Assembly (NCBI GenBank): GCA_964013405.1
Contig: CAXGWI010000044.1
Coordinates: 1-24,024 of the forward strand
Source of the DNA: an uncultured Myxococcales bacterium
GTDB taxonomy: Bacteria; Myxococcota; UBA4151
Length of the DNA: 24,024 nucleotides
Reading direction: 5' to 3'
The position numbers and the translations under genes are program-made. The notes beneath the pieces were generated by a model. The model was not told the DNA's origin. It saw only the letters and a list, made by a program, of their open reading frames with translations, and made no database searches. This document shows, one piece after another, positions 3,047-20,849 of this stretch. Numbering within the stretch: position 1 is the stretch's first letter; the number at the start of each line of letters is the position of its first letter.

Positions 3047-4441
3047 ATGGGCATGCGGCGAGAGGTTAAACGAATCCACTTCGTTGGGATCGGCGGGATT
3101 GGGCAAAGCGGTATCGCTGAAGTGCTCCGAGCCCAGGACTTCAAGGTCTCAGGCTCGGATTTGGCCGCGGGGGCGATGGTCACCCGGCTTCGGTCCCAAG
3201 ACATCGAGGTGACGGTTCCCCACCAGGCCGAGGCCGTTGACGGCGCTGATGTCTGCGTCGTCTCCAGCGCGATCCCACCCAGTAACCCCGAGATCCAACG
3301 GGCCCATGAACTGGGCATTCCCGTCATTCGGCGGGCCGAGATGCTCGGAGAGTTGATTCGACTCCAAACCGGTCTGTGTGTCGCCGGTCAGCATGGCAAG
3401 ACCACGACGACCTCCATGGTCGCAGAGGTCCTCACCGCCGGTGGTTTGGATCCCACCGTGATCAACGGCGGTGTGCTCGCCAGCTTGGGGAGCAATGCCC
3501 GTTATGGCAAAGGCTCTTATCTGGTCTGTGAGGCAGACGAGAGCGACGGCTCCTTTTTGAGCCTGTCACCAACCTACGCCATCATCACCAATCTCGCTGG
3601 CGCCGACCACCTTGAAACCTGGCCAGGGGGGATGCCGGAGTTACAGGAAGCCTTTCTGCGCTTCGCCAACTCAGTGCCATTCTATGGGCGCATCGTCCTT
3701 TGTCATGATGATCCCTATCTGCGGGAGATGCTCCCCAGCCTGACTCGGCCCCACGTGACCTATGGCTTGGGAGCGACCGCCGACTATCAGGCCATGGAGT
3801 TAGAATACGGTCCGGGCTGGACCGCTTTTTCCATCCACCATCGAGGTGAAGATCTCGGTCGGATTCGGATGCCTGTGCTCGGGGCCCACAATGTACGCAA
3901 CGCCTTAGCTGCAGCAGCGATGGGCATGGAATTAGGCGTCGAGGTCGCCTCCATCCGGAGCGCACTTGAGCAGTTTGCCGGGGTAGGGCGCCGCTTCGAA
4001 ATCGCCGGCGAGGTGGGTGGCGTGATGGTGGTCCACGACTATGGGCATCACCCCACGGAGATCGAGGCGGTGTTGAAAGCCGCTCGCCGGGCCTGGCCCC
4101 AGCGGCCGATCCGGGCCCTTTTCCAGCCCCACCGCTACAGTCGTTTTCGCGATCAGTGGGACGAGTTTACCGCCTGCTTCGACGATGCCCAGGCCGTTGT
4201 TGTCAGTGACGTCTATTCGGCCGGCGAAGCGCCCATCGATGGCGTCGATTCCCCCTCCTTTGCGGAGGCTGCTCGGAGTCGGGGGCATCGGGGCGTTGCA
4301 TACGCCGGCCATGTGGCAACGGCCGCAGAACAGCTCGCGGCCCAAGCTGAGGCCGGTGAGATCCTTATCTTATTTGGAGCCGGTGACATCCACCGGCAGG
4401 TCCCCCCTCTCATGGAGAGACTGGAAGGAGGCGCTGCGTGA
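3047..4441 (+). CDS. murC: UDP-N-acetylmuramate--L-alanine ligase
   Basis: IHFVGIGGIG.SG, GSD, HGKTTTT, EADESDGSFL, GVGRRF, DYGHHPTEI, FQPHRYSR and GAGDI motifs. Start at ATG 3047 (alternative 3053) after GGGAG. Confidence 0.97.
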   Translation: MGMRREVKRIHFVGIGGIGQSGIAEVLRAQDFKVSGSDLAAGAMVTRLRSQDIEVTVPHQAEAVDGADVCVVSSAIPPSNPEIQRAHELGIPVIRRAEMLGELIRLQTGLCVAGQHGKTTTTSMVAEVLTAGGLDPTVINGGVLASLGSNARYGKGSYLVCEADESDGSFLSLSPTYAIITNLAGADHLETWPGGMPELQEAFLRFANSVPFYGRIVLCHDDPYLREMLPSLTRPHVTYGLGATADYQAMELEYGPGWTAFSIHHRGEDLGRIRMPVLGAHNVRNALAAAAMGMELGVEVASIRSALEQFAGVGRRFEIAGEVGGVMVVHDYGHHPTEIEAVLKAARRAWPQRPIRALFQPHRYSRFRDQWDEFTACFDDAQAVVVSDVYSAGEAPIDGVDSPSFAEAARSRGHRGVAYAGHVATAAEQLAAQAEAGEILILFGAGDIHRQVPPLMERLEGGAA

Positions 4442-5382
4442 AGACAGGCGCTCGGAGCGAGACGAGAATCGAAACCCAAACCCAGACGAGACAGAGCCGT
4501 CTCGTGGATCGGTTGGGAGGAGGGCTTCTCTTCGATCAACCCCTCAGCGAACTCTGCTCTTTCGGTGTGGGAGGCCCGCTTCAGTATCTCTACAAGCCAG
4601 GGACCACCCGGGAACTTCAGGATGCGTTGCTGATCGCGTCCGAACTGGCCATGCCCACGCGCTTTGTTGGCCTGGGGAGCCGGGTCTTGGCCGGCGATTG
4701 GGGATTCAAAGGTCTGGGGATTCGTTTGGGGGGCGCCTTGGCGCAGGTGGCCGTCGACCCCCAGGACCCGCGGTATCTCTTGGTGGGAGCCGGATGTCCG
4801 ATCGAGACCTTACTGCCGCAGGCTCTGGAGCACGGTATCGACGCGAGTTGTCTCGCCGGCCTGACGGGGAGTTTGGGCGGCGCGTTGCTCGCAGGAGACC
4901 CTGGTTATGACGCCGAGCTGCGGACCCTCATCGACAGCGCTGAGGTGATCGACCGAGAGGGCCAAGTCCGGTGGGTGGTTCGGGCCCGCTCTCAAACCAT
5001 CGCTCGCCTCGGTGGCTTTGCCGCACTCACCCGGGTGCGGTTGGGGCCAAGGGATCCAGATCTCGACACGGAACTTGCGGCAGCTCGGGCCAAGGCCTGT
5101 CAGGAGTTTCGTCAGGCCTTTCGGCCGGAGGGGCCCTTTCTCGGACCGATCTTCAAAAACCCAGAAGGCCAGTTGGCATCCCATTTGGTGGATCGGGCCG
5201 GTTTGCGGGGAGCCCGTATCGGTCAAGCACAGTTCTCTTTGGTGCAGTCGAACTATCTTGTGAACCTGGGGGGAGCGACAGCCCGGGACGCACTGGAGCT
5301 GATGGACCTTGCGACCTACCGGGTTAAACGGAAGCTAGGCTGCAGTCTGCAACTCGAGGTCCAGTTGATGGGGGCCTTCTAG
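4438..5382 (+). CDS. murB: MurB-fold protein (UDP-N-acetylenolpyruvoylglucosamine reductase family), catalytic motifs degenerate
   Basis: Aligns by eye over its length to type II MurB (PL...SFGVGGP, G.GS, GSLGGA, FKNP, N.LVNLGGATARD, L.LEV) and follows murC. The catalytic Ser and FAD-binding motifs are altered (see findings). Confidence 0.85.
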   Translation: MKTGARSETRIETQTQTRQSRLVDRLGGGLLFDQPLSELCSFGVGGPLQYLYKPGTTRELQDALLIASELAMPTRFVGLGSRVLAGDWGFKGLGIRLGGALAQVAVDPQDPRYLLVGAGCPIETLLPQALEHGIDASCLAGLTGSLGGALLAGDPGYDAELRTLIDSAEVIDREGQVRWVVRARSQTIARLGGFAALTRVRLGPRDPDLDTELAAARAKACQEFRQAFRPEGPFLGPIFKNPEGQLASHLVDRAGLRGARIGQAQFSLVQSNYLVNLGGATARDALELMDLATYRVKRKLGCSLQLEVQLMGAF

Positions 5383-5384
5383 GG

Positions 5385-6122
5385 ATGAACAACCTGGGCA
5401 GCGATATTCCTTCTTCTCCGCCAGCATCGGGCTTTCGCGTCGCGCCATTCCTCTTGGCCGCGCTCTGTCTCGCGCTGGTGGGGTGGACGGCCCAGTTAGC
5501 TGCTGAGGGCGACCTCTTTCGGATCCAGGAACTCGACGTCCGTGGGCTTCCGCCGGATCAAGCAGAGATTGCAAAAGTCTACGCGGGGATCCCCAAAGGA
5601 ACCCCGCTGTATGCGGTGGATGTGGAGGCCCTACGACGACGGCTCCAGTATCTCCCGGGCATCACGCAGATCGAAATCAAACGGGAACTTCCCAACCGCC
5701 TGATCATCGAACTGCTGCCCGATGAAGCCCGGGCCGCAGCCCTACTCAATGGGCGGCGAGTCCTCCTCAACCGTAAAGGTCAGGCCTTCTCCATGGATGA
5801 GAAGACCCAAGATCTTCCCATCGTGATCGGGGGGGAGACCGCTGGAGATCTGCGTTTGGCGGTGTCAGCGGTCAATGCTTTCGCCGCGGTACGTGAGCCT
5901 GACGAATTGGCGATGGTTCGGGTCGGCCCCCTTGGGGTCAGCCTTTGGGACCGGACGGGCGTCGAACATCGATTGGGGAAACGTCGCCTGCGGGAGCGAC
6001 TGGAGCGGGGCACTCGAGTCTTGGAAGAGGCCCGGCGGCGAGGTGTGAAACTAGATCGTTTACTGCTGGACGATGAGGGGCACCCTAATCGGGTGGTCGC
6101 TCGTTTAGGCCGGGGAGGCTGA
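5385..6122 (+). CDS. ftsQ: Cell division protein FtsQ/DivIB (TM + POTRA domain)
   Basis: Single N-terminal TM, then a POTRA-like segment (FRIQELDVRG...LYAVDVEALRRRLQYLPGITQIEIKRELPNRLIIEL) and LPIVIG. Directly upstream of ftsA. Confidence 0.85.
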   Translation: MNNLGSDIPSSPPASGFRVAPFLLAALCLALVGWTAQLAAEGDLFRIQELDVRGLPPDQAEIAKVYAGIPKGTPLYAVDVEALRRRLQYLPGITQIEIKRELPNRLIIELLPDEARAAALLNGRRVLLNRKGQAFSMDEKTQDLPIVIGGETAGDLRLAVSAVNAFAAVREPDELAMVRVGPLGVSLWDRTGVEHRLGKRRLRERLERGTRVLEEARRRGVKLDRLLLDDEGHPNRVVARLGRGG

Positions 6123-6132
6123 GGGGACGCTT

Positions 6133-7392
6133 ATGATGGGATACAGCGACTATTTCGTTGGGCTGGATATCGGCACACGAACCGTGCGTGCAGCGGTCTG
6201 TGCCAGTGATCTCGGCGGGGCTGAGTTGAAGCTCCTTGGCTTGGGTCAGGTCCCGAGCGAGGGCATGAACCGAGGGGTCGTGGTCGACATCAGTGCCGCG
6301 AAGAACGCGGTCCGTCAGGCCATCGAGGCGGCCGAGGCCGAAGCCGGCGTGGAAGTTGAGTCAGCCCTCGTGGGCATCGCTGGCAGCCATATCCGCTCGC
6401 TCAACAGCACCGGTGTCGTGGCGATCAAAGGCTTGGAGATCACGCCGAGCGATGTGCGCCGCTGCGTTGAAGCGGCCAAGGACAATGCGTTACCATCAGA
6501 CCGGCGCATCATCCATGCTCTACCCCAAGACTTTAAGGTCGACGACCACGTGGGTGTTCGTGAGCCGGTGGGGATGAGTGGGAAACGACTCGAAGCCCAA
6601 GTTCATGTCGTCAGCGTCTCGGTCAATGCCGCGAACAACGTGGTGAAGTCGGTCAAGGCCGCAGGCTTTGAAGTTGAGGATGTCATCCTCGATCCGCTGG
6701 CATCCGCGGCCGCTGTACTCGACGATGACGAGCGACAACTCGGGGTCTGTGTTGCCGATCTAGGCTCCGGAACCACCGACCTTGCCGTCTATCGAGACGG
6801 AGCGCTCATTCACAGCAGGGTGCTCCCCCTCGGCGGCGAAGCTCTGACCAAGGCCATCAGTACGGCCTTGCTCACCCCCTTCGCCGAGGCCGAGCGCGTG
6901 AAGGTGGAAGCAGGGGCTGCCTGTGCTCACCTTGTTGAGCCTGATGACTGGATGCAGATCGGCTCGGTCGGTGGTCGGGCGAGCCGCAAGGTTGATGTGC
7001 TGAGCGTTGCCCGGATCATCGAAGAGCAGATGTCTGGGCTCTTTGCTTCGATTCTGGCTGAGTTAGAAGCCAATGACCTGACGCAGCATCTCGGTGGCGG
7101 CGTGGTCATCACCGGCGGCGGGGCTCAGATGCGGGGCATGGCGGAGCTCGCGGAGCGGGTCCTGGGTCTTCCCGTTCGTCGGGGCACGGTCTCGGGCGTC
7201 TCTGGGATCCCGAGGCAGGTCCGTTCCGAATCGCTGGCGACCGTCCTGGGGCTCTGCCTCTTTGGTAAAGCCCAGGCCGGCGATCCCCTGCGGAGCGCGC
7301 GTCGGCATCGGATGGGTGATGGCGACCAGACTGGTTTGTTCAAGATTACCAAGAGGTTAATGGACTTCTTCTCGGGCTACGGTGAGGCCTAG
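6133..7392 (+). CDS. ftsA: Cell division protein FtsA (copy 1)
   Basis: LDIGT, GVVVDI, EPVGMSGKRLE, DLGSGTTD, AERVK and VITGGGA motifs. Ends in an amphipathic helix LFKITKRLMDFF. GAGGGG RBS. Confidence 0.96.
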   Translation: MMGYSDYFVGLDIGTRTVRAAVCASDLGGAELKLLGLGQVPSEGMNRGVVVDISAAKNAVRQAIEAAEAEAGVEVESALVGIAGSHIRSLNSTGVVAIKGLEITPSDVRRCVEAAKDNALPSDRRIIHALPQDFKVDDHVGVREPVGMSGKRLEAQVHVVSVSVNAANNVVKSVKAAGFEVEDVILDPLASAAAVLDDDERQLGVCVADLGSGTTDLAVYRDGALIHSRVLPLGGEALTKAISTALLTPFAEAERVKVEAGAACAHLVEPDDWMQIGSVGGRASRKVDVLSVARIIEEQMSGLFASILAELEANDLTQHLGGGVVITGGGAQMRGMAELAERVLGLPVRRGTVSGVSGIPRQVRSESLATVLGLCLFGKAQAGDPLRSARRHRMGDGDQTGLFKITKRLMDFFSGYGEA

Positions 7393-7409
7393 AAAATTAG
7401 GAATTAATG

Positions 7410-7447
7410 GCTCCCTTCGGGCGGGCCGAAACATGGAGGCAGGGAGC
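7410..7447 (+). promoter_or_regulatory. Stem-loop in the ftsA-ftsZ intergenic region covering the ftsZ Shine-Dalgarno
   Basis: GCTCCCT (7410-7416) is the exact reverse complement of AGGGAGC (7441-7447), which ends 8 nt before ATG 7456. Nested hairpin TCGG-gcggg-CCGA at 7417-7429. Confidence 0.4.
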
Positions 7448-7455
7448 ATCTCATT

Positions 7456-9279
7456 ATGGTCGATTTCGTGGAATTCATTGATGACGAATCCGAAAATCCA
7501 ACGTTGCCGTTGAAGGCGAGCGAAGCCAAACCCGGCGGCCCCGGTACCCAGGTGCGCGGCACCCCCCGCATCCTCGTTATCGGGACCGGTGGGGCCGGTG
7601 GCAACGTGGTCACCACGCTTCACGGCATGGGCCTTTCAGGCGCCGATTTGGCGGCGACCAATACGGACTCGCAAGACCTGGATGCCTGCCCTGTTAGTCA
7701 GAAAATTTTGCTCGGAGCCGACATTTGTCGCGGTGAGGGCACCGGAGGCATTGCCGAGCACGGTCATCTCGCCGTCATGGAGAGCGTGGACGCGGTCCAG
7801 GCCCTGGTGACGGGTACGGACATGGTCTTCGTCGTTCTCGGCGGTGGTGGTGGCACGGGCTCAGGAAGCGCTCCGGAGATCTGCCACATCGCTCGCAGCG
7901 CCGGCGCACTCACCGTCGCCGTGATGACGAAACCTTTCTCCTGGGAGGGCAGGAAGCGGATGCGGACCGCAAGCGAGGCTTGTGAAGCCTTGCGGAACAC
8001 GGCGGACGCAACCGTTGTCCTCTCGAATGACAGACTCCAGGCCCTCTGCGACGAAGATGCTTCCGTTGAAGAAGCCTACGAGGCCACCGATCGCCTGCTG
8101 GCCGAGACGGTGAAGGGCCTCGTCCATTTGGCCCAGGCGCCGGCCACTGGGAGTCGAAGCATCAATCTGGACTTCCGCGATGTGCGCACCGTTCTTGCTG
8201 CTCGCAGGGATGCCTTGATCGGGATCGGTTTGGCGAAGGGGCCCGACCGGGCGGAAAAGGCATTGGAGCTAGCCATCAGCAGCCCGCTCCTTGAAGATGC
8301 GACGCTTGAGGGTGCGACCGGTGTGCTCTGTCATATTCGTTACGGCACCGAGGCCCTGACGATGCGCGAGAAGGCTCGCATCGGGGCCCTCATCGGCGAT
8401 GTGATCGATGAGGATGCAGACTACATCCTCGGATTCTGTGCCGACACGGCGCTGACCGATGAAATCTCGGTCATGGTGGTTGCGACGGGTTTCGATGGCG
8501 GCGCCGTCGAGAAGCGGACGGCGAGCCGCTCCGACGGCGTTCGAGTCATGGCGCCCGCTTCGCGGCCCGCCGCCCATGTCGACCGGCGGGCCGTCCCGGT
8601 GGAAGCACCGGTGGAGCATCGTCCGAAGCCGAGTAACCCCATCGTTAGCAATCCCACGCCTGTGAGCCGGCGGCAGCTCAAACGGGCCGGTGTCCGACCG
8701 ACAGCGACCCAGGGTGAGTTGGTGATTCCGGCAGCCCCCCGGCCCCCGGCCACGCCGGCGCCGAGCCAGGTTCGCCCCCAAGAGGCGATGGTAGCCCAAG
8801 CGCAGCCAGCGGCCCCAGCGCCGATGGCGGTTCAGCCCTCGTTACCGGAGGTCGGCGCCACTGGGGGCAGCCCCAGCGCGGCGGAGCAGCGGGCGGCTGA
8901 GGGGCAACGTGCACCGAAAGTTCGCATCGGAGCGGTGGTCTATGATGAGGAGCCAATTCCTCAGGCAAGTCCGGTGACTGAGGCCGAGCCGGCGGCCCTT
9001 GATGGTGAACCTTCCGCCCTTTACGTTGAGAATCTGACGAGCATCCTGCCGACCACGGAGCAGGTCGCCGACCTCTACGCGGAAGGGCCCACGGAAGGGG
9101 AGCCCAGTCGGGCGCCGTTCTCCGTGCCGACTGCTCAGCATCTCCAACGCAACAGCACGCTCCGAGGAGCCCAATTGACACCGACGGTTGGGAACGACCC
9201 GGTTCATCTGGAGTCGCCACGGCAAGCCTCGCTTGTGGTCACGGACGATGACATCGATCGTCCACCCTTCCTCAAGTAG
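7456..9279 (+). CDS. ftsZ: Cell division protein FtsZ, divergent, with very long C-terminal linker
   Basis: VIGTGGAGGN, NTD.Q.L, tubulin signature GGGTGSG, PFSWEG..R, T7 loop NLDFRD and ATGF ending the core at residue 346. C-terminal peptide DIDRPPFLK. Confidence 0.95.
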   Translation: MVDFVEFIDDESENPTLPLKASEAKPGGPGTQVRGTPRILVIGTGGAGGNVVTTLHGMGLSGADLAATNTDSQDLDACPVSQKILLGADICRGEGTGGIAEHGHLAVMESVDAVQALVTGTDMVFVVLGGGGGTGSGSAPEICHIARSAGALTVAVMTKPFSWEGRKRMRTASEACEALRNTADATVVLSNDRLQALCDEDASVEEAYEATDRLLAETVKGLVHLAQAPATGSRSINLDFRDVRTVLAARRDALIGIGLAKGPDRAEKALELAISSPLLEDATLEGATGVLCHIRYGTEALTMREKARIGALIGDVIDEDADYILGFCADTALTDEISVMVVATGFDGGAVEKRTASRSDGVRVMAPASRPAAHVDRRAVPVEAPVEHRPKPSNPIVSNPTPVSRRQLKRAGVRPTATQGELVIPAAPRPPATPAPSQVRPQEAMVAQAQPAAPAPMAVQPSLPEVGATGGSPSAAEQRAAEGQRAPKVRIGAVVYDEEPIPQASPVTEAEPAALDGEPSALYVENLTSILPTTEQVADLYAEGPTEGEPSRAPFSVPTAQHLQRNSTLRGAQLTPTVGNDPVHLESPRQASLVVTDDDIDRPPFLK

Positions 9280-9285
9280 CTTCCG

Positions 9286-9774
9286 GTGAGGGACCTGGCT
9301 CAGGACCTGGTCCAGGCCTTGGCCCAACGGGCCGCGACGGTGACGTTTGCCGAGAGTTGTACGGGAGGCTTAATGGCAGCCACCCTGACCGGTGCAGCAG
9401 GTGCTTCCCGGGTCTTCCGTGGAAGTTACGTTCTCTATTGCGATGAAGAGAAGGCACGGCTTCTCGGCGTCGCCCCCGCTTTGATTCAGGAGCAGGGGGC
9501 GGTCAGCGAGGGCTGTGTCCTTTCTCTGCTGCAGGGCTTGGCCCGGGACCATGGTCCCTGCTATGCTGCGGCCGTGAGCGGGATCGCCGGGCCCGATGGA
9601 GCTCGTCCTGGGAAGCCTGTCGGTACGGTCTGGATCGGTCTCGCAAGCCCGAACGATCGTTACAGCAAGCGGTTTCAGTTCGATGGGGATCGAGAGGCCG
9701 TTCGACGACAGGCTGTAGAGGTCGGGCTGCAAGGGCTTCTTCGGTTGGTCAAAGAAGAGGAGGGACCCTGGTGA
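9286..9774 (+). CDS. cinA: CinA C-terminal domain protein (PncC-like nicotinamide-nucleotide amidohydrolase)
   Basis: AESCTGG, GASRVF.GS, Y.DEEK..LLGV, GAVSE, SGIAGPDG..PGKPVGTVWIG and F.GDREAVR motifs. No N-terminal MoCF domain. Confidence 0.92.
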   Translation: MRDLAQDLVQALAQRAATVTFAESCTGGLMAATLTGAAGASRVFRGSYVLYCDEEKARLLGVAPALIQEQGAVSEGCVLSLLQGLARDHGPCYAAAVSGIAGPDGARPGKPVGTVWIGLASPNDRYSKRFQFDGDREAVRRQAVEVGLQGLLRLVKEEEGPW

Positions 9775-11057
9775 GTGGATGGTTTCAAGCCGCAGCGCTG
9801 CCGGTGCCCGAACGGGCCGTGGTGGTTGTTGATCTGGGAGCTCAGATCTTTCGGGTGGGCATCATCGACGGTGAGGGCTGCACCTTGGCCTTGCAGGAGG
9901 CAGAGGCCGTCGGGGTCGACCGCCAGGGTCTGTTACAGGATCTGGCGCCGGCCGCAGAACTCTTGGGTAAGTTGGTCCGGCGGGTCGAAACTCTGGCCGA
10001 TCATCAGGCTGACGAGATCCTGACCACAGTACCCGGGCCCCTTCTGCGTAGTTACAGTAGCGATGGTAAGGTGGCGGTCCCGGAGGGGGTGGTCGAGTCC
10101 GGTCATCTCCTGCGCGCGGCCGAGCACGCCGTGTTTAGCGAAGAGATCAGTCCGGGGAGTCGGCTCGTCCATGCGCTGCGACGGGGCTGCCGTCTCGATG
10201 GCCAAGATCACGTGGTTCGCCCCATGGGGCTAGCAGGACATCGCCTGGTCGTGGACTTCTTCTGGGTGCTCTTGGAGCAGCGGGCTGCCGAAACCATCGA
10301 TCAACTCTTTAGCATGGCTGATCTGCCGAAACCGGCCTTTATCGCCAGTCCACTGGCCACAGCCATTGGTGGTCTGACCCGAGATGAGGCGATTCTCGGA
10401 GCCGTCAGTATTGACCTCGGTCACGCTGCGACCGGTATGACCGTCTGGAAGGATGAGGTGCCCCAGGCCCAGTTTCATCTGCCCTGTGGTGGACGGCATC
10501 TCACCGGTGACCTGAGGCAGGTCTTTCAGGTCTCGAGCGAAGTTGCCCTCGATATCATGAAGAGTCAGATCCCGGCCGTGGCCGAGATGGCCGATGAAGA
10601 AGGACGGATTCGAGTGGGTCGCAAGCGGATCAAGCGCCGCAAAGCGGCTCGAGTACTCCAGTCTCGCCTCGAGGATACCTTTCATCGGGTGCGGGGTCTC
10701 CTGTCGACCCAGGGGTATTGGGGCGAAGCGAACAATGGCATTGTCCTGAGCGGCGGTGTCTCTCGCCTGGAAGGGGTTCAGGCCCTGGCTGAGGCTGTCT
10801 TTGAATGCCCGGTACGCATTGCGGGGATGGAGGCTGAGGATCGCCAGTGGACCTGGCCACCCACCCATGAGGAGATCGTCAGCCTGAAGGCCCGCCCTGA
10901 TCTCGTCACCCTGGCGGGAGCGATGGAGTTTGCTCGCCTTAATCTCCTCAATCTTGGCAGCGGGAAGCGAGGCCCCCAGCCCACGACCACCGGGGTGCCA
11001 GCGCCCCAGGTCCATGACCTACGAGGCGAACTAGGGGCCTTACAGGAAGGTCTGTAG
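9771..11057 (+). CDS. Second, divergent FtsA paralog
   Basis: Colinear with FtsA1, including the FtsA-specific 1C subdomain (RLVHAL...RLDG...RPMGLAGHRL), PLATA...L..DE..LG...IDLG, LP.GG..LT.DL, GIVLSGG and LAE.VF..PVRI. GTGA overlap with cinA; GAGGAGG upstream. Confidence 0.85.
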   Translation: MSGWFQAAALPVPERAVVVVDLGAQIFRVGIIDGEGCTLALQEAEAVGVDRQGLLQDLAPAAELLGKLVRRVETLADHQADEILTTVPGPLLRSYSSDGKVAVPEGVVESGHLLRAAEHAVFSEEISPGSRLVHALRRGCRLDGQDHVVRPMGLAGHRLVVDFFWVLLEQRAAETIDQLFSMADLPKPAFIASPLATAIGGLTRDEAILGAVSIDLGHAATGMTVWKDEVPQAQFHLPCGGRHLTGDLRQVFQVSSEVALDIMKSQIPAVAEMADEEGRIRVGRKRIKRRKAARVLQSRLEDTFHRVRGLLSTQGYWGEANNGIVLSGGVSRLEGVQALAEAVFECPVRIAGMEAEDRQWTWPPTHEEIVSLKARPDLVTLAGAMEFARLNLLNLGSGKRGPQPTTTGVPAPQVHDLRGELGALQEGL

Positions 11058-11089: not shown

Positions 11090-12232
11090 CTAGAGCACCA
11101 AGAGCAAGATCAGGGCGAAGAGGAAGACCAAGACAGCGCCGCCGAAGATACCCAACATCAGCCAGTCCGGCTGGGCCTTCTTGACCGGTGAACTGATGGC
11201 CCGCGTCTCCTCGCGATTGGGAACCTCTTCCACCGCGGGTAGCGACTTCGACCACTCCCCCGAGTCGTCGAGTTCTAAGCGGCGGTCGGGGGCACTGAGT
11301 TCGGCGCTCTGGGCCGTCAGACTTTCCAAGTCTTCTTCCGTCGCGATGACGGTGACGGGTTCGTCCAACTCGTCGTCAGGCGGGTCCACACTGTCGACGG
11401 ATGGCTCGACCTCGACCAGATCATCTTCAAGGGGAAGTTCACTGCTGTCCTCAGCCTCGGTGGCTTCATGGGAAAGATCTTCCAGGGCATGTTGATCTTC
11501 AGGACTCAGGGGAATGTTCGATTGGCTTTCATCGAGTTCGCCGAGAAAGGCGGCGGCCGGATCGACGAAGACAAGACTCGTGGCACCGACGGTGATTTCC
11601 GTCCGATCCCTCAATTTGGTCCGCTCTGTGATTTCGGAACCATGGATTTTGACGCCATTTTTGGACTCGAGGTCTTCGACCCAAATCCCGGAGAAATCGA
11701 TGTCGAAGCGACAATGGCGCCGGCTGACGTTGGCCTCATCCAGGCAGATGTCGCAGTCATGGTCTCGGCCGAGGATCAGGAAGGGCTTGCGGCCATCGAG
11801 GAGGATGCGGTCGCCCTCCCGCTTGCCGCTGAGTACCCGGAGATAGGGCGTGTTGTCCTCGTTGCCGAGACTTCCGAGCATATCGGCGACCATCTGTTGG
11901 GCCAGAAAGCTCGTGTGTTCCTCACTGGCAAAGTCGAGCTTGGCCGCGTGAAAGATAACCTGGGTGCCTGCAACCTCGATACAGTCCCGGTCCCGCAGGC
12001 TGATGGATTGGGCCGACTCCATGCGAGCCCCATTGAGTCGGGTGCCGTGGCGACTGCCGAGGTCCTCGATGAGCCACTCAACCCCCCGCTGGAGGACTTT
12101 AAAATGATGCCGGCTAATGGCCGGGTTCTCCAAGACGATCTCGCAGTCCGCCTCTCGCCCAACCAGATAGCTGTTACCATCGGCCAGGTCGATGAAGCGG
12201 CCCTCCGAGACCACCTCAAGTTGGGCTGTCAC
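11090..12232 (-). CDS. Tandem FHA-domain protein with acidic linker and C-terminal transmembrane anchor
   Basis: Two FHA cores (GREADC...ISRHH...DLGSRHGT; GRDHDC...VSRRH...DLESKNG), a long D/E-rich stretch and a hydrophobic C-terminal tail. GTGA overlap with the upstream TPR gene. Confidence 0.9.
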   Translation of the reverse strand: MTAQLEVVSEGRFIDLADGNSYLVGREADCEIVLENPAISRHHFKVLQRGVEWLIEDLGSRHGTRLNGARMESAQSISLRDRDCIEVAGTQVIFHAAKLDFASEEHTSFLAQQMVADMLGSLGNEDNTPYLRVLSGKREGDRILLDGRKPFLILGRDHDCDICLDEANVSRRHCRFDIDFSGIWVEDLESKNGVKIHGSEITERTKLRDRTEITVGATSLVFVDPAAAFLGELDESQSNIPLSPEDQHALEDLSHEATEAEDSSELPLEDDLVEVEPSVDSVDPPDDELDEPVTVIATEEDLESLTAQSAELSAPDRRLELDDSGEWSKSLPAVEEVPNREETRAISSPVKKAQPDWLMLGIFGGAVLVFLFALILLLVL

Positions 12233-13353
12233 CGGCCACCACCTAGGCGCAGCACTCGAGTGATCTCCGCACAGGCGTCGATCCCTTCTGGGTCTCGACT
12301 GCGGGGCAGGGAGAGGACGGGCTCGCAGACCTCAAGAGCCCGCTGGCTGTTCTGCAACTCCACGAGGAAGCGAGCAAAAGTCACTCTCGTTGAGATGAAG
12401 CCGGGGTCCTGGCGTAGGGCTTCCTCACAGTAGGAGATGGCCTTTTCAACGTGGCGTTGGCCAGCGAAGGTCGCACAGAGGAACCGAAGCGGCTGCATAT
12501 TGCCCCGGGCCGCTTGGTCCCGCCAGGTGGCCTCCGCTTGTCGGACTTGGTCATCACGGGCAGCGAGGCAAGCCTGGACTTCTTGTTCCAAGTCTCCGAT
12601 CGGGCTCAGGTCCGCGCCGATCCGGCGGAGTTCGGCAATCCTTTGGCCCGCCTCCTCACAGCGCTTGAGTTGGTGACTCAGCATGACACCCAAGAGCAAA
12701 CAGTCCGTGAAGCTGGGCGCAGCCATTAAGCACTGTTCTACGCTGACCCGTGCCCGCTCAAGATCGGCAGCCGATGTCCGGGGACTGAGCATGGCCCGCT
12801 GCCGGTAAACCGTCCCGAGCAAGGCCCTCGCGTCGGGGCGTCGGGGCGCGAGTTCAGTGAGGCGGATGAGTTGGATTTCGGCTTCGTCGAGATCCTTGAG
12901 GACCTCTGCACCTCGGGCCGTGTCGCGCAGGACTCGAGAATAGAGTGCGTAGGCGTAGTTGTAGCGGGCGTCTAGGTAGCCTGGGTGGATCTGCAGGGCC
13001 GACTTGAAGAGTTCGATGGCCCGGTCGTAGGCCTGCCGCTCGAGAAAGTAGGTGCCCAGATTGTTACGGGCCTCAGCGAAGTCTGCATGGGCCTTGATCG
13101 CTTGGCGGTACCAGCGGGCGGCTTCTTCCCGTTCGCCAGCACCCCAGGCGGCGGTACCGAGACCGTTGAGGCAGGGGTGATAGTCGGGTGTGTACTCCAG
13201 GCACAGTTTGAAGGCTTCCCGGGCGCGGGGCCAATTCTCCTGATGCAGATAGGCCGCACCTTGGTTGACCAGCGCCAGCGCTTGGGGATGGGGCGGTGCA
13301 TGGGCCTTACAGCCCACCGCGAAGAGCAAAACGATCGCCAGCAGTCGCGTCAA
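12229..13353 (-). CDS. TPR-repeat lipoprotein (N-terminal half resembles PilF/PilW/Tgl-type TPR arrays)
   Basis: Signal peptide MTRLLAIVLLFAVGC with lipobox. TPR patterns LNGLG, AEARNNLG..FL, ARYNYA, ARALLG. TTG start with GGAGG upstream. Confidence 0.85.
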   Translation of the reverse strand: MTRLLAIVLLFAVGCKAHAPPHPQALALVNQGAAYLHQENWPRAREAFKLCLEYTPDYHPCLNGLGTAAWGAGEREEAARWYRQAIKAHADFAEARNNLGTYFLERQAYDRAIELFKSALQIHPGYLDARYNYAYALYSRVLRDTARGAEVLKDLDEAEIQLIRLTELAPRRPDARALLGTVYRQRAMLSPRTSAADLERARVSVEQCLMAAPSFTDCLLLGVMLSHQLKRCEEAGQRIAELRRIGADLSPIGDLEQEVQACLAARDDQVRQAEATWRDQAARGNMQPLRFLCATFAGQRHVEKAISYCEEALRQDPGFISTRVTFARFLVELQNSQRALEVCEPVLSLPRSRDPEGIDACAEITRVLRLGGGR

Positions 13354-13797: not shown

Positions 13798-16731
13798 TCA
13801 CTGGGCACAGAGCGTATCGTACTCAATTTCGATTTGCCCGCCCCGGCTTGGGATCGATCCAGCGTTGAAAACGACGGCGTTGGCTTCCCGGTCATAGAAC
13901 CAGCCGGTATTGCCTCCTTCTTGGCCCCGAGCGACTGGGTTACCATCCACCCGAACCTCGATCGTCTCAACCATTGGGCGCCGCGTCAGTCCAAAAGAGG
14001 ACCTGAAGGCGAAGGTGTCGAGTCCTAAAGCCCGCATCATTCCCCGCCAGTCGTTGGAGCAGATGTCTTGGGTCAGTCCATTGAGGCGATTGGCCAGTTC
14101 CATGTAGCGGCTCCCTCGATCCGCTTCACAGTTGTTACCGCCCTGTCCGACGATGGCCGAGAAGTTGATCAGGTCCCGGTTTCGCCAGCCCTTAATGGAG
14201 CGGAAGGCATCTTCGTAGAGTCCGACGGGGCCGCGACTCTGGTCCTCTTCATCGCTGACTGCGATGATGTAGAGTTTGGCTTCTTCCCGGAGGAACCCAG
14301 CATTGAGGCCGTCTTCGGCGAGACGATCGTGGCGGAAGAAATTCCGTGCCGCCTCGAGACCGGCCTCCCGGCTATCCGAACTGTTTCGATCGGGATTCCT
14401 GTTCCGGCTCACCCGGACATTGCATTCGAAATGCTCATACAGGCCGGGGGTATTGGCCTGGAGGTAAGGGGGCGGATCGCAGGCGGTATAGACTCCGCTC
14501 ATGTCACCATCAGCCAACGTGGTCGTGACCGCGATCTGAAAGTTCACGTTAATCTGCTGGGTCGCGAAACGGATGAACTCCCGGAAGTTACTGGCCAACG
14601 CATTTTGTTCGTCGCTCATGGAGCCCGAGTCATCCACCACCCAGAGCACATCCACCATGGGTTCGGCTGCTTGTTCAAAGCGGTCGATGTGATGGGTTTC
14701 TAGGGTCCCCTCGCCAACGAGGGGAACGGTGAATGCCTGCTCGTCTCCATCATTGTTTTCGATGATGAGAAGACCTTCCATGGGGCCCGCTTGGCGGGGG
14801 AACATGCGCACGCGCACTTCCGCGGTGTCTCCAGGGCGGACGACCAGTGGCACACGGGGGGCCCGGGTAATGCGGAATTCAGGATCCGAATTCTCCTCGA
14901 TGGAGAAGCCATTAATGGTGAGGTCAGCGTTGCCTAGATTGTAGATCGTCACCGTCTCTTCGACGCTGCCGCAACCGACGGTTTCGATGCCGAAGTCTAA
15001 GCGACCGGGAACGACGTCGATGTCTGGCTCTGCCGGTGTTGCTGAGAACCCGATGGAGAAGCTTCCTGGGCCCTCTTCATGTTCAAAGGTTTGGGGGGAA
15101 TCGGTGAAGATGGTGACGCCGTTACCGCACAAGGCGGTGGCTTGAGCACCACCTTGACCGCAGAGTAGGTCGCCTAAAGGCCCGGGAATGGGCGGCGAAC
15201 GGTGGGGCTGATAGGTGCCCGAATCGGTGCCTGCTAGTTGGGTGGGACGGAACGCGACCTCGATTCGGTATTCCTCCCCTGGTGCAATGAAGATACCCTC
15301 GTGATTTCCAAGGATCGAAAACTCCCGTTCGGGCGTTTGTTGCGGCTCAAAATTGAGGCCGAGAATGGAGCAAAGGGTGGATCCCGTATTCAGGATTTTG
15401 ATGGGGAGGATTTTCTCACTGCCCACCAAGACCGAGCCGAACTGAAGGATGCCATGGCGTCGGGTGAGCCGACCCAGTCCACCGGCATTCTCTGGAGTCA
15501 CTTCCAGCTCACAGATGGGCGCGCCGCCGCCATTTGCGGCGAGGGAGACGGTCACATTTTGATTGTTCGGATCGGGAACGAGCTCGTTTTCGAGAAAGTC
15601 GATTTCGATCGTGGCGTTGGCAGCGACAACGTCCTGCCTGTTTGGGCTTTCATACTGGACGATCAACTCGATCTGTCCTGTTTCGGGACGGGGAGCCGGG
15701 TTGAGGGTCTCTTCGTCGATGGTACCCCGCAGTCGGACTGGGAAGTTGAGGCCGTTCAGCCCTTCGATAATCTGGAACTCTTGGGAGCCCAGGGGGCCGC
15801 GAATATCCATGACATCGCAGTCGAGGCCGCCGACATTTGAGATGACGAGTCGCCGGGTAAGAGAATTGCCGCCGGGCACTCGTCCGAAGTGAATTTCGGT
15901 GGGGAGTACAGAGATCCGGCAGGCCGGTGCAGCGAGGCCACCGCCACGTAGGGGAATAATGAAGACCCCTTCCGGTGCTCGGGGGTCGTTGGTCTCAACC
16001 AGGACAGCCCCGCTCTTGTTACCCTCGGTCTCTGGGGCAAAGCGAAGGCCTTGGATGGTGGCCTCACCGGGGGCTAAACTGCCCGTGGTCGAGGAGGGGT
16101 CTGAGAAACTAAAGGCATCGTCACTGCCGTCCTGGAGACTGACGTTGGTGATCTCCAGAGCAAGGCGCCCACAACTGGTGAGACTGAGTTCTTTTTGGAC
16201 TTGGCCGCCCTGGAAGGCGTCACCGAATTCCATGGGGACGGGAGCTGCGCAGAGACGAGGTGCGAGACCATCGGCCGTCAGGAGCAGCCGGGCTTCGGGG
16301 TGCGCTGGGTCCGAGCTGACGACGACGAGGTCGGCGCAATCTTGGCCGTCGTCCAATGGCTTGTACTCCAAGACGAAGTCATGGGTCATTTCGGTGGCTA
16401 AGGTGCCTTCGAAATAGGGGACCGTGAACTCGCCTTCCGTGTAGCCAGCGGTGCAACTGGGGTCGGTACTGGCTTCAATGCGTATGGCTTCGACGAAGAG
16501 ATCCTTGGTCCCGATGCTCTCCAACTGGAGATTGGCGAGGGCCTGCTGGCCGTAGGGCACTGCACCGAGGTCAATGGACCGCAGTCCATCCCGGTAGTTG
16601 CTCCCGCGGTCGAGGTCGTGGATATCCAGGGAAGGAACAGGGAGTCTCGTGATCAGTTCATCCTCACAGTTGCAGTTGGCAAGCGCCAGTGGCAGCAACG
16701 CGAAGAGGCTCCAAAAAGGTCGTCGTCCCAT
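13798..16731 (-). CDS. Large surface lipoprotein: about five ASH/choice-of-anchor-D-like Ig repeats plus a VWA (MIDAS) domain (977 aa)
   Basis: Start reassigned to ATG 16731 (GGAGGAG upstream), giving signal MGRRPFWSLFALLPLALANC. Repeat starts IDLGAVPYG, MEFGDAFQG, IHFGRVPGG, LQFGSVLVG, LDFGIETVG. VWA motif VDVLWVVDDSGSM and later SDEEDQS. Confidence 0.85.
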   Translation of the reverse strand: MGRRPFWSLFALLPLALANCNCEDELITRLPVPSLDIHDLDRGSNYRDGLRSIDLGAVPYGQQALANLQLESIGTKDLFVEAIRIEASTDPSCTAGYTEGEFTVPYFEGTLATEMTHDFVLEYKPLDDGQDCADLVVVSSDPAHPEARLLLTADGLAPRLCAAPVPMEFGDAFQGGQVQKELSLTSCGRLALEITNVSLQDGSDDAFSFSDPSSTTGSLAPGEATIQGLRFAPETEGNKSGAVLVETNDPRAPEGVFIIPLRGGGLAAPACRISVLPTEIHFGRVPGGNSLTRRLVISNVGGLDCDVMDIRGPLGSQEFQIIEGLNGLNFPVRLRGTIDEETLNPAPRPETGQIELIVQYESPNRQDVVAANATIEIDFLENELVPDPNNQNVTVSLAANGGGAPICELEVTPENAGGLGRLTRRHGILQFGSVLVGSEKILPIKILNTGSTLCSILGLNFEPQQTPEREFSILGNHEGIFIAPGEEYRIEVAFRPTQLAGTDSGTYQPHRSPPIPGPLGDLLCGQGGAQATALCGNGVTIFTDSPQTFEHEEGPGSFSIGFSATPAEPDIDVVPGRLDFGIETVGCGSVEETVTIYNLGNADLTINGFSIEENSDPEFRITRAPRVPLVVRPGDTAEVRVRMFPRQAGPMEGLLIIENNDGDEQAFTVPLVGEGTLETHHIDRFEQAAEPMVDVLWVVDDSGSMSDEQNALASNFREFIRFATQQINVNFQIAVTTTLADGDMSGVYTACDPPPYLQANTPGLYEHFECNVRVSRNRNPDRNSSDSREAGLEAARNFFRHDRLAEDGLNAGFLREEAKLYIIAVSDEEDQSRGPVGLYEDAFRSIKGWRNRDLINFSAIVGQGGNNCEADRGSRYMELANRLNGLTQDICSNDWRGMMRALGLDTFAFRSSFGLTRRPMVETIEVRVDGNPVARGQEGGNTGWFYDREANAVVFNAGSIPSRGGQIEIEYDTLCAQ

Positions 16732-16792
16732 CCATTCTCCTCCAGGCACACCGTGCCGCCGGCAGTCTTGCCTTACTTTTTGCCTCGTTCGC

Positions 16793-17713
16793 ATGGGACG
16801 AATGACGGTCCTTTGTACCTTTTTCGCCTGTGTCCAGTCGCCTGCGCCCAAGCCCGTGAAAACCCAGCGTTCCTTGCAGACGGTGGCCGCCACCCGGCCT
16901 GAGCAGCGGCCTGTTCCCGCGCCGCCGAAAGAAGTCCGGAAGCGGGCAAAGAAAAAACCGAAGCGATCCCGCTCGAAACGGCGCCGTCAGCGGATGCGCT
17001 CGATCATGAAGCGCTTCCAGTCCTTGTCGCCGGTGGTCGTGAGCGACCGTCGCTCATTTCAACCGCTCCCGCCCCGGCGACAGCGCCTTTGGCAGGACCT
17101 CCTAGAGCAAGCCGGTGGTTGGGCGGCCCGGGCCCGGGGCGAGCAGGACCGTCGTTTTGCCTCGGTTTTGGCTCGTTGGTTAGAGGATCAACTGGCGTTG
17201 GAGCAGCGACAGTTTTCCCGGGATAAAGAGTTGGAGTTGGCGACTTGGGAAATGATTCGCTTCTGTGCGGCCCGGGGTGAAGTCGAGAATCTGCGCTTAA
17301 CCGTGCTCGAACAACGGCTGACTTGGCCCTTACGGCAGGTGGTCGTGACCAGTTTCTTTGGCCCCCGGAAGAACCCATTCGGCAAGGGGGAGCGCCAGCA
17401 CGAGGGGATCGATTTGGCTGCGGCCGTAGGGACTCCGGTCTTCGCAATCGCCGCAGGGCGAGTCACCCGGGCCCGGACCACAGGGGGCTATGGTCGGATG
17501 GTGGAGATCGATCATGGCAAAGGCTTAGTGAGCCGTTACGCCCATCTTTCTTCCAGTGATCTCCGGCCCGGTGATGTGGTCACCGCCGGGAGTCAGGTTG
17601 GTGAGACTGGTCAGTCGGGACGGGTGACAGGGCCACATCTACATCTCGAGGTTCGGCTCAAGGGGGCCCCGGTAGACCCCCTGCTGTTGGCCGGTTGGCG
17701 ATCACCGCCTTAG
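16793..17713 (+). CDS. M23-family metallopeptidase (peptidoglycan endopeptidase-like), start uncertain
   Basis: Zinc motifs HEGID (HxxxD) and GPHLHLEV (HxH), plus TSFFGPR..P, GYG..VEIDH and YAHLS. The ORF-track start overlaps the divergent gene. ATG 16793 gives a short possible lipoprotein signal MGRMTVLCTFFAC. Confidence 0.88.
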   Translation: MGRMTVLCTFFACVQSPAPKPVKTQRSLQTVAATRPEQRPVPAPPKEVRKRAKKKPKRSRSKRRRQRMRSIMKRFQSLSPVVVSDRRSFQPLPPRRQRLWQDLLEQAGGWAARARGEQDRRFASVLARWLEDQLALEQRQFSRDKELELATWEMIRFCAARGEVENLRLTVLEQRLTWPLRQVVVTSFFGPRKNPFGKGERQHEGIDLAAAVGTPVFAIAAGRVTRARTTGGYGRMVEIDHGKGLVSRYAHLSSSDLRPGDVVTAGSQVGETGQSGRVTGPHLHLEVRLKGAPVDPLLLAGWRSPP

Positions 17714-20348: not shown

Positions 20349-20849
20349 TCAGGGGCTCGGCGCCGGGGCCGGCGTCGGGGCCGGCGTTGGGGCCGGTGTC
20401 ACCGCGGGCGACTTGGTGCCCTTGTGGTGTAGCTTTCGCCAGAGCTCGACGAGATTCAGTGGCTTGAGTTTGGGGCTGTGCCCGCCCACGTGACAGCGCT
20501 GGCAGGTTGCGAGGCTCTGGGGCAGGAGCCCAAGATAACCCCGAAGGTTCGGGTCACGCATGATGTGGGAGGGAGCGTAGGCGCTGCCCGGTCCGTGGCA
20601 GGTCTCACAGTGGACGCCAGCCTGTCGGTTTTGTCGGTCCGGTGCGTGACACGTCAGGCATTGAGGGCGCTTTCGGTCCGCTTCCTTGAGGCGGTGCCAA
20701 CTTTTCGCGTGTAAGTGAGTCGCCCAGTCAGTATGTGCTGCCTCGTGGCACTTGCTGCAGCGCTCTGGACCGATGCTCCGCGGGGGATCAGACCAAGTGA
20801 TGCCCGGTCCCAAAAGTAGAACCAGGACCGCAGCGAGACGCCAACACAT
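20349..20849 (-). CDS. Periplasmic tetraheme c-type cytochrome (c554-like family)
   Basis: Signal peptide and four CXXCH motifs (CSKCH, CLTCH, CETCH, CQRCH). Family patterns G.E.C..CH....W...HA and GV.CE.CHGPGS. Pro/Thr/Ala tail; GGAGGA RBS. Confidence 0.9.
   Translation of the reverse strand: MCWRLAAVLVLLLGPGITWSDPPRSIGPERCSKCHEAAHTDWATHLHAKSWHRLKEADRKRPQCLTCHAPDRQNRQAGVHCETCHGPGSAYAPSHIMRDPNLRGYLGLLPQSLATCQRCHVGGHSPKLKPLNLVELWRKLHHKGTKSPAVTPAPTPAPTPAPAPSP
20365..20400. repeat. 12-bp tandem repeat x3 (encodes TPAP in the cytochrome tail)
   Basis: GGGGCCGGCGTC GGGGCCGGCGTT GGGGCCGGTGTC. Confidence 0.85.

Follow-up and report, generated by a model that had tools for sequence, protein, structure and literature searches.

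How many of the tasks of FtsA must reside in a single protein? During bacterial division, FtsA normally serves as the FtsZ tether, as an ATP-binding and polymerizing protein, and as a relay in signaling to septal wall synthesis, and the coupling of these activities has so far been studied with engineered mutants. The question is raised by a stretch of 24,024 nucleotides from an uncultured Myxococcales bacterium (GenBank assembly GCA_964013405.1, contig CAXGWI010000044.1; hereafter the window, contig C44 of genome G000), where the dcw cluster ends murB-ftsQ-ftsA1-ftsZ-cinA-ftsA2. FtsA1 (ftsA1, 6133-7392, plus strand, 419 aa) has intact ATP motifs and an eroded pocket for the FtsZ tail. FtsA2 (ftsA2, 9771-11057, plus strand, 428 aa) is a divergent FtsA with a degenerate nucleotide site that keeps the tail-binding triad, D242, R300, and E303 in E. 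coli numbering. A preliminary description of the window had proposed this complementary loss for two paralogs; when the open reading frames were re-read, its gene positions, quoted motifs, and residue numbers were all correct. It had missed a third paralog, ftsA3, on another contig of the same genome, as well as a Trp/Phe N terminus and a six-residue hairpin deletion in FtsA2. That there are three paralogs, that they are conserved, and that their residue losses are reciprocal are direct observations, and this is a real, class-wide variant of the FtsA-FtsZ tether, for which a division of labor is suggested by sequence.

The class comprises six genomes (G000 to G005) in one family and two genera, g1 (the window's genus, with G000 and G001) and g2. 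All three paralogs are found in five of the six and are whole in four (G000-G003); G004 carries ftsA2, ftsA3, and a piece of ftsA1 at a contig end. In G005, which is 59% complete, ftsA3 and two pieces of ftsA1 are present and ftsA2 was not found. The ftsA3 gene was identified by tblastn on the G000 genome (contig C109, 5563-6810, minus strand, 415 aa) and is not part of the dcw cluster; its neighbors are proC-proA on one side and tatD on the other. Where contigs permit, both gene orders, ftsA1-ftsZ-cinA-ftsA2 and proA-ftsA3-tatD, are found again in relatives, which bears out the synteny expected in the preliminary description. The former is kept in all four relatives with that contig, and cinA occupies the same place in G001-G004. 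The ProC-ProA frame that diverges from ftsA3 is an apparent one-frame fusion (7056-9227, plus strand, of locus L031) and is conserved in relatives.

Among the sequences searched, the three-paralog arrangement occurs in this class only. Most of 401 phylum genomes have one match to the FtsA profile TIGR01174, with four candidates scored per genome; G195 enters this tally as one single-match row. At least two FtsA-profile matches were found in 37 of the 395 non-class phylum genomes. The 13 of these examined closely comprised eight weak partial MreB-type matches, three gene pieces, one helicase-like fusion, and one true second ftsA. An FtsA2 query on 55 other phylum genomes gave one match in 51, none in three, and in the last a second match that is weak and contains stops. 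An FtsA2 profile run against 1.84 billion representatives found two FtsA2-like entries (P0003 and a fragment) among the 150 matches listed, the rest being ordinary FtsAs, and the ESM Atlas gave only generic FtsA clusters. Databases label the FtsA2 and FtsA3 orthologs simply as FtsA.

Some of these matches deserve description in their own right. The true second ftsA is an independent, full-length gene from another Myxococcota family (locus L074, G162:C131, 626-2698, minus strand); its product has a long extra segment at the N terminus and retains the D242/R300/E303 triad unchanged. In locus L076 (G046:C2, 1477-3702), a divergent FtsA-like N-terminal domain is fused to a domain that by eye looks like a DnaB-type helicase, and the gene adjoins one for a sigma-54 activator. 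In G000, TIGR01174 also matches a fourth gene, which is mreB and not ftsA. Genus g1 has two mreB genes (in both G000 and G001; G000:C6:36580-37677 and C3:18447-19592), and one was found in each of G002 and G003.

Each paralog forms its own clade holding both genera (support 89-100). This indicates that the duplications predate the genus split, and it is also the reason for rejecting an assembly chimera or contamination. A mixture-model tree, with 17 rows omitted, places FtsA2 and FtsA3 as sisters (support 95) and all three paralogs in one clade (96). The single clade is absent under LG+G4 (47 rows), and the order of duplication is uncertain because long branches meet. FtsA1 and FtsA2 are 24% identical. 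The ratio of nonsynonymous to synonymous substitution (dN/dS) is 0.02-0.03 for FtsA1, 0.025-0.06 for FtsA2, and 0.10-0.14 for FtsA3, values that are rough because synonymous sites are near saturation. These ratios indicate that each paralog is under purifying selection. Open frames and low dN/dS rule out FtsA2 as a pseudogene or frameshift product, and the neutral decay considered in the preliminary description is not seen.

FtsA2 proved to be a true FtsA paralog, as first described, and not a PilM. It matches PF14450 (44.5 bits, cut-off 31.8) and PF02491 (39.8 bits, cut-off 25.4), and has the actin fold with the SHS2/1C insert. The copy in the window misses the TIGR01174 equivalog cut-off (161.2 versus 175.85), which the g2 orthologs pass (186-197). 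The predicted model (pLDDT 87.7) has FtsA as each of the best 13 Foldseek matches listed, with TM scores against FtsA structures of 0.76-0.78 (query) and 0.83-0.88 (target). PilM appears at rank 20 and lower among the matches listed (TM 0.55-0.62), and no PilM Pfam or NCBIfam family matched. Only FtsA families matched FtsA2, with no ZipA_C or SepF domain, and it groups with FtsA1 and FtsA3 among FtsAs in a tree from which PilM is absent.

Residues were compared in E. coli K-12 FtsA numbering against 174 reference FtsAs, 149 diverse and 25 from Myxococcota, chosen with FtsA2 queries; 30 more from Myxococcota were chosen with the family HMM. D242, R300, E303, and K258 are conserved in 148, 146, 138, and 148 of the 149 diverse references and in 25/25 and 30/30 of the two Myxococcota sets. 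The first three have individual roles in FtsZ-tail binding, and E255 and K258 hold the ATP ribose. PMC10769210, citing a genetic screen by Pichoff and Lutkenhaus, gives residues 234-245 and 294-304 as the tail site. The invariant set consists of 23 positions, each at least 93% invariant among the 174 references. It was scored over 12 FtsA1, 10 FtsA2, and 8 FtsA3 rows, some of them near-identical, so that the deviating cells are not independent.

FtsA1 is in most respects canonical. It passes the TIGR01174 cut-off (390 bits versus 175.85), aligns without gaps to E. coli FtsA (7q6d) over D210-E303, as originally noted, and has the ATP motifs DIGT12, DLGSGTTD209, AERVK253, and TGGGA327, each given with the number of its first residue. 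A C-terminal amphipathic helix (7336-7377; moment 0.73, charge +2, interface score -2.6 kcal/mol) is its predicted membrane anchor. Its departures lie in LTKAI238, with A241 at the D242 position (6853-6855), and IIEEQMSGL295, with Q299 and G302 at the R300 and E303 positions (7027-7038). Across the 12 orthologs, FtsA1 deviates at 242, 300, and 303 only, with deviating cells at 25/48 in the pocket, 0/96 in the ATP site, and 0/132 elsewhere; the 20 remaining invariant positions have 0/240. That all three deviating positions fall among the four pocket positions has p ~0.002 (pocket as delimited in PMC10769210).

The erosion has proceeded unevenly. E303 is lost in 12/12 orthologs, D242 is changed in 9/12, and R300 is lost in 4/12, in two separate events; on a 16-row tree there are three changes at 242, two at 300, and seven at 303. 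None of the 12 keeps the full triad. In the window's genus its three positions hold A/Q/G or A/Q/S; the other lineages show E/R/R, E/R/A, E/H/G, D/R/V, D/R/R, or D/R/L. The triad loss first described is thus complete in the window's genus; elsewhere it is graded, with R300 kept in 8/12 and D242 in 3/12 and FtsA2 also present. In a broad profile of the 174 sequences, the FtsA1 pocket scores below all references, and its ATP site and overall score stay in range. The pattern is one of relaxed constraint on one surface only, as judged from these substitutions, and a surface freed from selection accounts for the drift more readily than does a clean split in the ancestor.

FtsA2 shows the reverse in the same broad profile, falling below all references overall and at the ATP site. 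Its motifs are DLGAQ21, DLGHAATG215, LTGDL244, ALDIM259, and LQSRLEDT296. D247 (10509-10511) stands at the D242 position, and R299 to D302 (10665-10676) cover the R300 and E303 positions. G236, D242, and R300, with Asp at 303, are kept in 10/10 orthologs. K258 is lost in 10/10, E255 in 7/10, and T215 in 9/9. Still retained at the nucleotide site are D14, G16, D210, G212, G336, and G337, and around subdomain 1C are G45, G49, D138, P146, G148, R153, and L154. The reciprocal losses at the ATP site and the FtsZ pocket, proposed from one locus, hold across the family at the level of residues. FtsA3 passes the TIGR01174 cut-off (195.5 bits) and keeps E255 and K258, with D210E in five and G337N in four of eight sequences; 29 of its 32 pocket cells deviate, by which count it has lost the whole FtsZ-tail pocket.

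Two further features of FtsA2 bear on how it would work. Its S12-S13 hairpin (10605-10634) has 29 residues in 9/9 orthologs, as opposed to 35 in 25/25 and 30/30 Myxococcota references; the shortest among 144 of the 149 diverse references has 31. The gap corresponds to E. coli 279-284, at the tip and next to R286 (model strands 279-282 and 285-288). The longitudinal FtsA contact runs between subdomains IIA and IIB, with R286 in subunit interfaces, according to PMC7613929. We infer that the deletion would block filament extension, which puts in doubt the regular FtsA1-FtsA2 co-polymer originally suggested.

The second feature is the membrane anchor. The FtsA2 C-terminal helix (10998-11054), which follows a conserved PAP..DL motif, is weak as an anchor. 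In the window it has a moment of 0.47 and no aromatic or basic residues. In g2 it is amphipathic but uncharged (moment 0.66-0.74, reference median 0.68). On the interface scale the C-termini score +0.7 to +1.3 kcal/mol, poor in 9/9 and among the worst 5% of the 174 references. The preliminary description was right about this end and overlooked the other. An aromatic N-terminal extension of 15-19 residues (9771-9800 in the window, with invariant W4) scores -2.2 to -4.0 kcal/mol in 9/9, like a canonical FtsA anchor; the best of 49 reference N-terminal extensions reaches -0.7, and canonical C-terminal anchors have a median of -1.6. A Trp within the first ten residues occurs in 9/9 FtsA2s and 2/149 references, and ribosome-binding sites back the start codon in both genera. 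All nine also carry a ten-residue insertion with invariant WTWPP (10827-10862; low pLDDT, ~60), a span length found in 2/149 references. It seems likely that an N-terminal membrane anchor has replaced the C-terminal one, and FtsA2 is probably not soluble.

FtsZ itself is single-copy in 5/5 class genomes and is unusual. In the window (7456-9279, plus strand) it has 607 aa, including a 260-aa C-terminal linker. The C-terminal region spans 256-301 aa in seven class sequences versus 60-103 in 17 others, and 62-167 in 22 further non-class sequences, some possibly from repeat genomes. Within the linker, an island at FtsZ 516-532 (9001-9051) is invariant at 11 of 17 positions. It is found in 5/6 class genomes and in 0/145 others (the query, 25 residues long, had limited sensitivity), making it a class-specific, candidate second docking motif. 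A full-length AlphaFold2 model (23 rows) gives this motif pLDDT <50 with no sign of fold-back, and is uninformative at this depth. In the C-terminal peptide (9244-9276), the whole class carries Pro at the A376 position, and the window's genus carries Arg at the I374 position. Just upstream of the peptide, both genera have a further short conserved motif, P-x-x-L-E-x-x-x-Q-x-x-L (9199-9234). The FtsZ core (7456-8500) is divergent (TIGR00065 288 versus a cut-off of 295.2), with several class-invariant cysteines and, at the T7-loop position that is usually Ala, Arg or Gln.

Other tethers appear to be missing. Neither SepF nor ZipA was found in the 5/5 class genomes searched (85-94% complete). With one ftsZ per genome, no protein other than FtsA2 was therefore found to carry the complete canonical triad. 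G000 also encodes a SPOR protein with a single membrane segment, FtsN-like by domain layout only.

On balance, and with slightly more confidence than doubt, we favor an explanation in which FtsA2 provides its own anchor and acts as the receptor for the FtsZ tail. FtsA1, possibly joined by FtsA3, would form the membrane-bound, ATP-binding filament that passes signals on to the late division proteins. Two ancient ftsA duplications would have produced three FtsAs that lost different conserved residues and likely divided the ancestral jobs. FtsA2 would sit on the membrane through its own predicted N-terminal anchor and bind the FtsZ C-terminal peptide as the main tail receptor. It would bind ATP weakly or not at all; given that D14, D210, and the GG loop are kept, altered nucleotide binding is also possible. 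Because its 2B hairpin tip is deleted, FtsA2 is proposed to extend filaments poorly, and it may act as a ZipA/SepF-type tether or as a filament end. FtsA1, freed from tail binding, would lose its pocket lineage by lineage and may reach the ring through FtsA2, the FtsZ linker motif, or late proteins. FtsA3, pocket-less and faster evolving, may be an accessory partner of FtsA1.

Several observations weigh against this explanation. R300 is kept in 8/12 FtsA1 orthologs, in three of them with D242 too, so FtsA1 may still bind the FtsZ tail in most lineages. FtsA2 has a conservative Asp instead of Glu at 303. The 174-sequence reference set was chosen with FtsA2 queries and may favor FtsA2. With a Myxococcota-only profile over a 23-residue pocket, FtsA2 (-0.72 to +0.18) and FtsA1 (-0.67 to -0.15) overlap, so the signal rests on the triad, not the whole surface. 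The FtsZ tail gained an Arg in the genus where FtsA1 lost one, a single event that could be compensation. Deletion of S12-S13 abolishes the FtsZ interaction, according to PMC4281207, and FtsA2 is without the hairpin tip. E. coli FtsA E14 and D210 mutants form no rings, according to PMC10213515, which would mean that nucleotide-site damage alone can impair localization. Further, the records of the FtsA1 protein P0169 (D/R/R) and the FtsA2 ortholog P0003 each give a contig of 29,477 bases, probably the same one, so FtsA2 coexists with FtsA1 proteins that may still bind the tail.

Much of this would fit a different assignment, possible if doubtful, in which FtsA1 is the real tether, by way of what remains of its pocket, a re-tuned form of that pocket, or the FtsZ linker motif, and FtsA2 competes for the FtsZ tail to time or limit ring assembly. 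FtsA1 is the most canonical and slowest-evolving copy, it retains R300 in those eight orthologs, a second conserved FtsZ motif exists, and the tail Arg arose in the genus whose FtsA1 lost R300. FtsA2, without K258 and the hairpin tip, is as a non-polymerizing competitor might be. However, an essential pocket should not drift, and this one keeps eroding while the 20 other invariant positions stay fixed. Nor was SepF or ZipA found as a replacement.

A more elaborate arrangement, which we consider rather unlikely, would have FtsA1 and FtsA3 form an ATP-dependent membrane filament without a grip on the tail, FtsA2 act as end cap and sole tail receptor, and the FtsZ linker serve as a second docking motif. 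As a cap, FtsA2 could receive a hairpin and could not donate one. Such a polar, capped, heteromeric bacterial actin tether would resemble a nucleotide-degenerate actin-related capping subunit.

A soluble FtsA2 that depends on co-polymerization with FtsA1 (and FtsA3), in an obligate mixed filament, to reach the membrane is quite unlikely. The shortened hairpin speaks against FtsA2 inside a filament, the invariant aromatic N terminus and WTWPP loop could anchor it, and the g2 C-terminal helix is still amphipathic; on the other side are the poor interface score of the C terminus, the residues kept around subdomain 1C, and the co-occurrence of the three paralogs. Very unlikely is a role for FtsA2 and FtsA3 outside the Z-ring, with the FtsA2 triad binding another partner: the very long stem branches of both, the sub-threshold TIGR01174 score of FtsA2, and the position of ftsA3 outside the dcw cluster would allow it, but FtsA2 stays directly behind ftsZ in 5/5 genomes holding it and keeps exactly the residues FtsA1 is losing, and dN/dS of 0.025-0.14 with open frames excludes neutral decay.

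The remainder of the locus adds context. Upstream, ftsQ (5385-6122, plus strand) encodes POTRA_1 and FtsQ_DivIB_C domains; the MurB encoded at 4438-5382 is divergent and under every NCBIfam murB cut-off, and no ddl gene lies between murB and ftsQ in the window. The cinA/pncC gene (9286-9774, plus strand; NMN deamidase domain) has a stop that overlaps the ftsA2 start (GTGA). A promoter and terminator scan of the locus gave nothing above shuffles. One marine metatranscriptome holds three contigs of 150-170 bases (depth 2-3), which fall in ftsZ, ftsA2, and the end of ftsA1; DNA carry-over is possible, and they are not taken as evidence.

Convergent on ftsA2 is a gene (11090-12232, minus strand) for a protein with two FHA domains, an acidic linker, and a membrane segment at its C terminus. 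Orthologs occur in 4/5 class relatives, and the adjacency is limited to genus g1, for which reason the protein was rejected as an FtsA2 partner. In the FtsZ linker motif, a Thr is followed at +3 by a hydrophobic residue, the pattern preferred by FHA domains, and a link between the two is speculative. Farther along, a protein of 1031 aa that combines HYDIN/ASH-type Ig domains with a vWA-like motif at its C terminus (13798-16893, minus strand) is adjoined by a TPR lipoprotein-like gene (12229-13353). A small multiheme cytochrome c with three CxxCH motifs (20349-20849, minus strand) is encoded between yihA/engB and coaE.

If the favored explanation of FtsA2 as receptor and FtsA1 as filament is true, this class offers a natural separation-of-function set (tail receptor, ATP filament, and accessory protein) whose members could be purified and combined on bilayers. 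It would allow asking whether tethering needs ATP or polymerization, and whether a filament without a grip on FtsZ still activates the divisome. FtsA2 would be a new type of FtsZ anchor, and the core divisome would be rebuildable by duplication. The scope is one small uncultured class of six genomes, with function read from sequence.

No description of specialized ftsA paralogs was found in full-text literature searches, with subscription journals mostly outside them and supplements excluded; copy-number tables of dcw surveys may list these genes. The available parts of PMC13109935, PMC8136486, PMC13732431, PMC11323482, and PMC5508204 describe none. Core division genes have been duplicated elsewhere, as with Hyphomicrobiales FtsZ1, which according to PMC13732431 has a division of labor or regulatory role. 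In such specialized FtsZ paralogs it is FtsZ that is duplicated, whereas the present class has one FtsZ and three copies of its anchor. Haloferax, with FtsZ1 and FtsZ2, is likewise reported to have specialized FtsZ paralogs (bioRxiv 10.1101/2020.06.04.133736).

Among other systems, ZipA and SepF would be alike in function if FtsA2 is a tail-binding tether independent of an FtsA-type ATP cycle, but their folds are unrelated, and FtsA2 is built on the FtsA fold. PilM shares an FtsA-like architecture, and the structural match of FtsA2 to PilM is weaker than to FtsA. MreB of the E. coli type is an actin-fold protein with an N-terminal membrane helix. It has an aromatic N-terminal anchor as predicted for FtsA2, which differs in its FtsA 1C insert and tail pocket. 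The closest comparison is with canonical single-copy FtsA (TIGR01174; E. coli 7Q6D, V. maritimus 7Q6F, and the T. maritima FtsA:FtsZ peptide complex 4A2A), with the same actin fold, the same 1C/SHS2 insert, and the same dcw position by ftsZ. There, one protein has the ATP site, the tail pocket, the hairpin, and the C-terminal anchor, whereas in the window's genus no paralog has all four.

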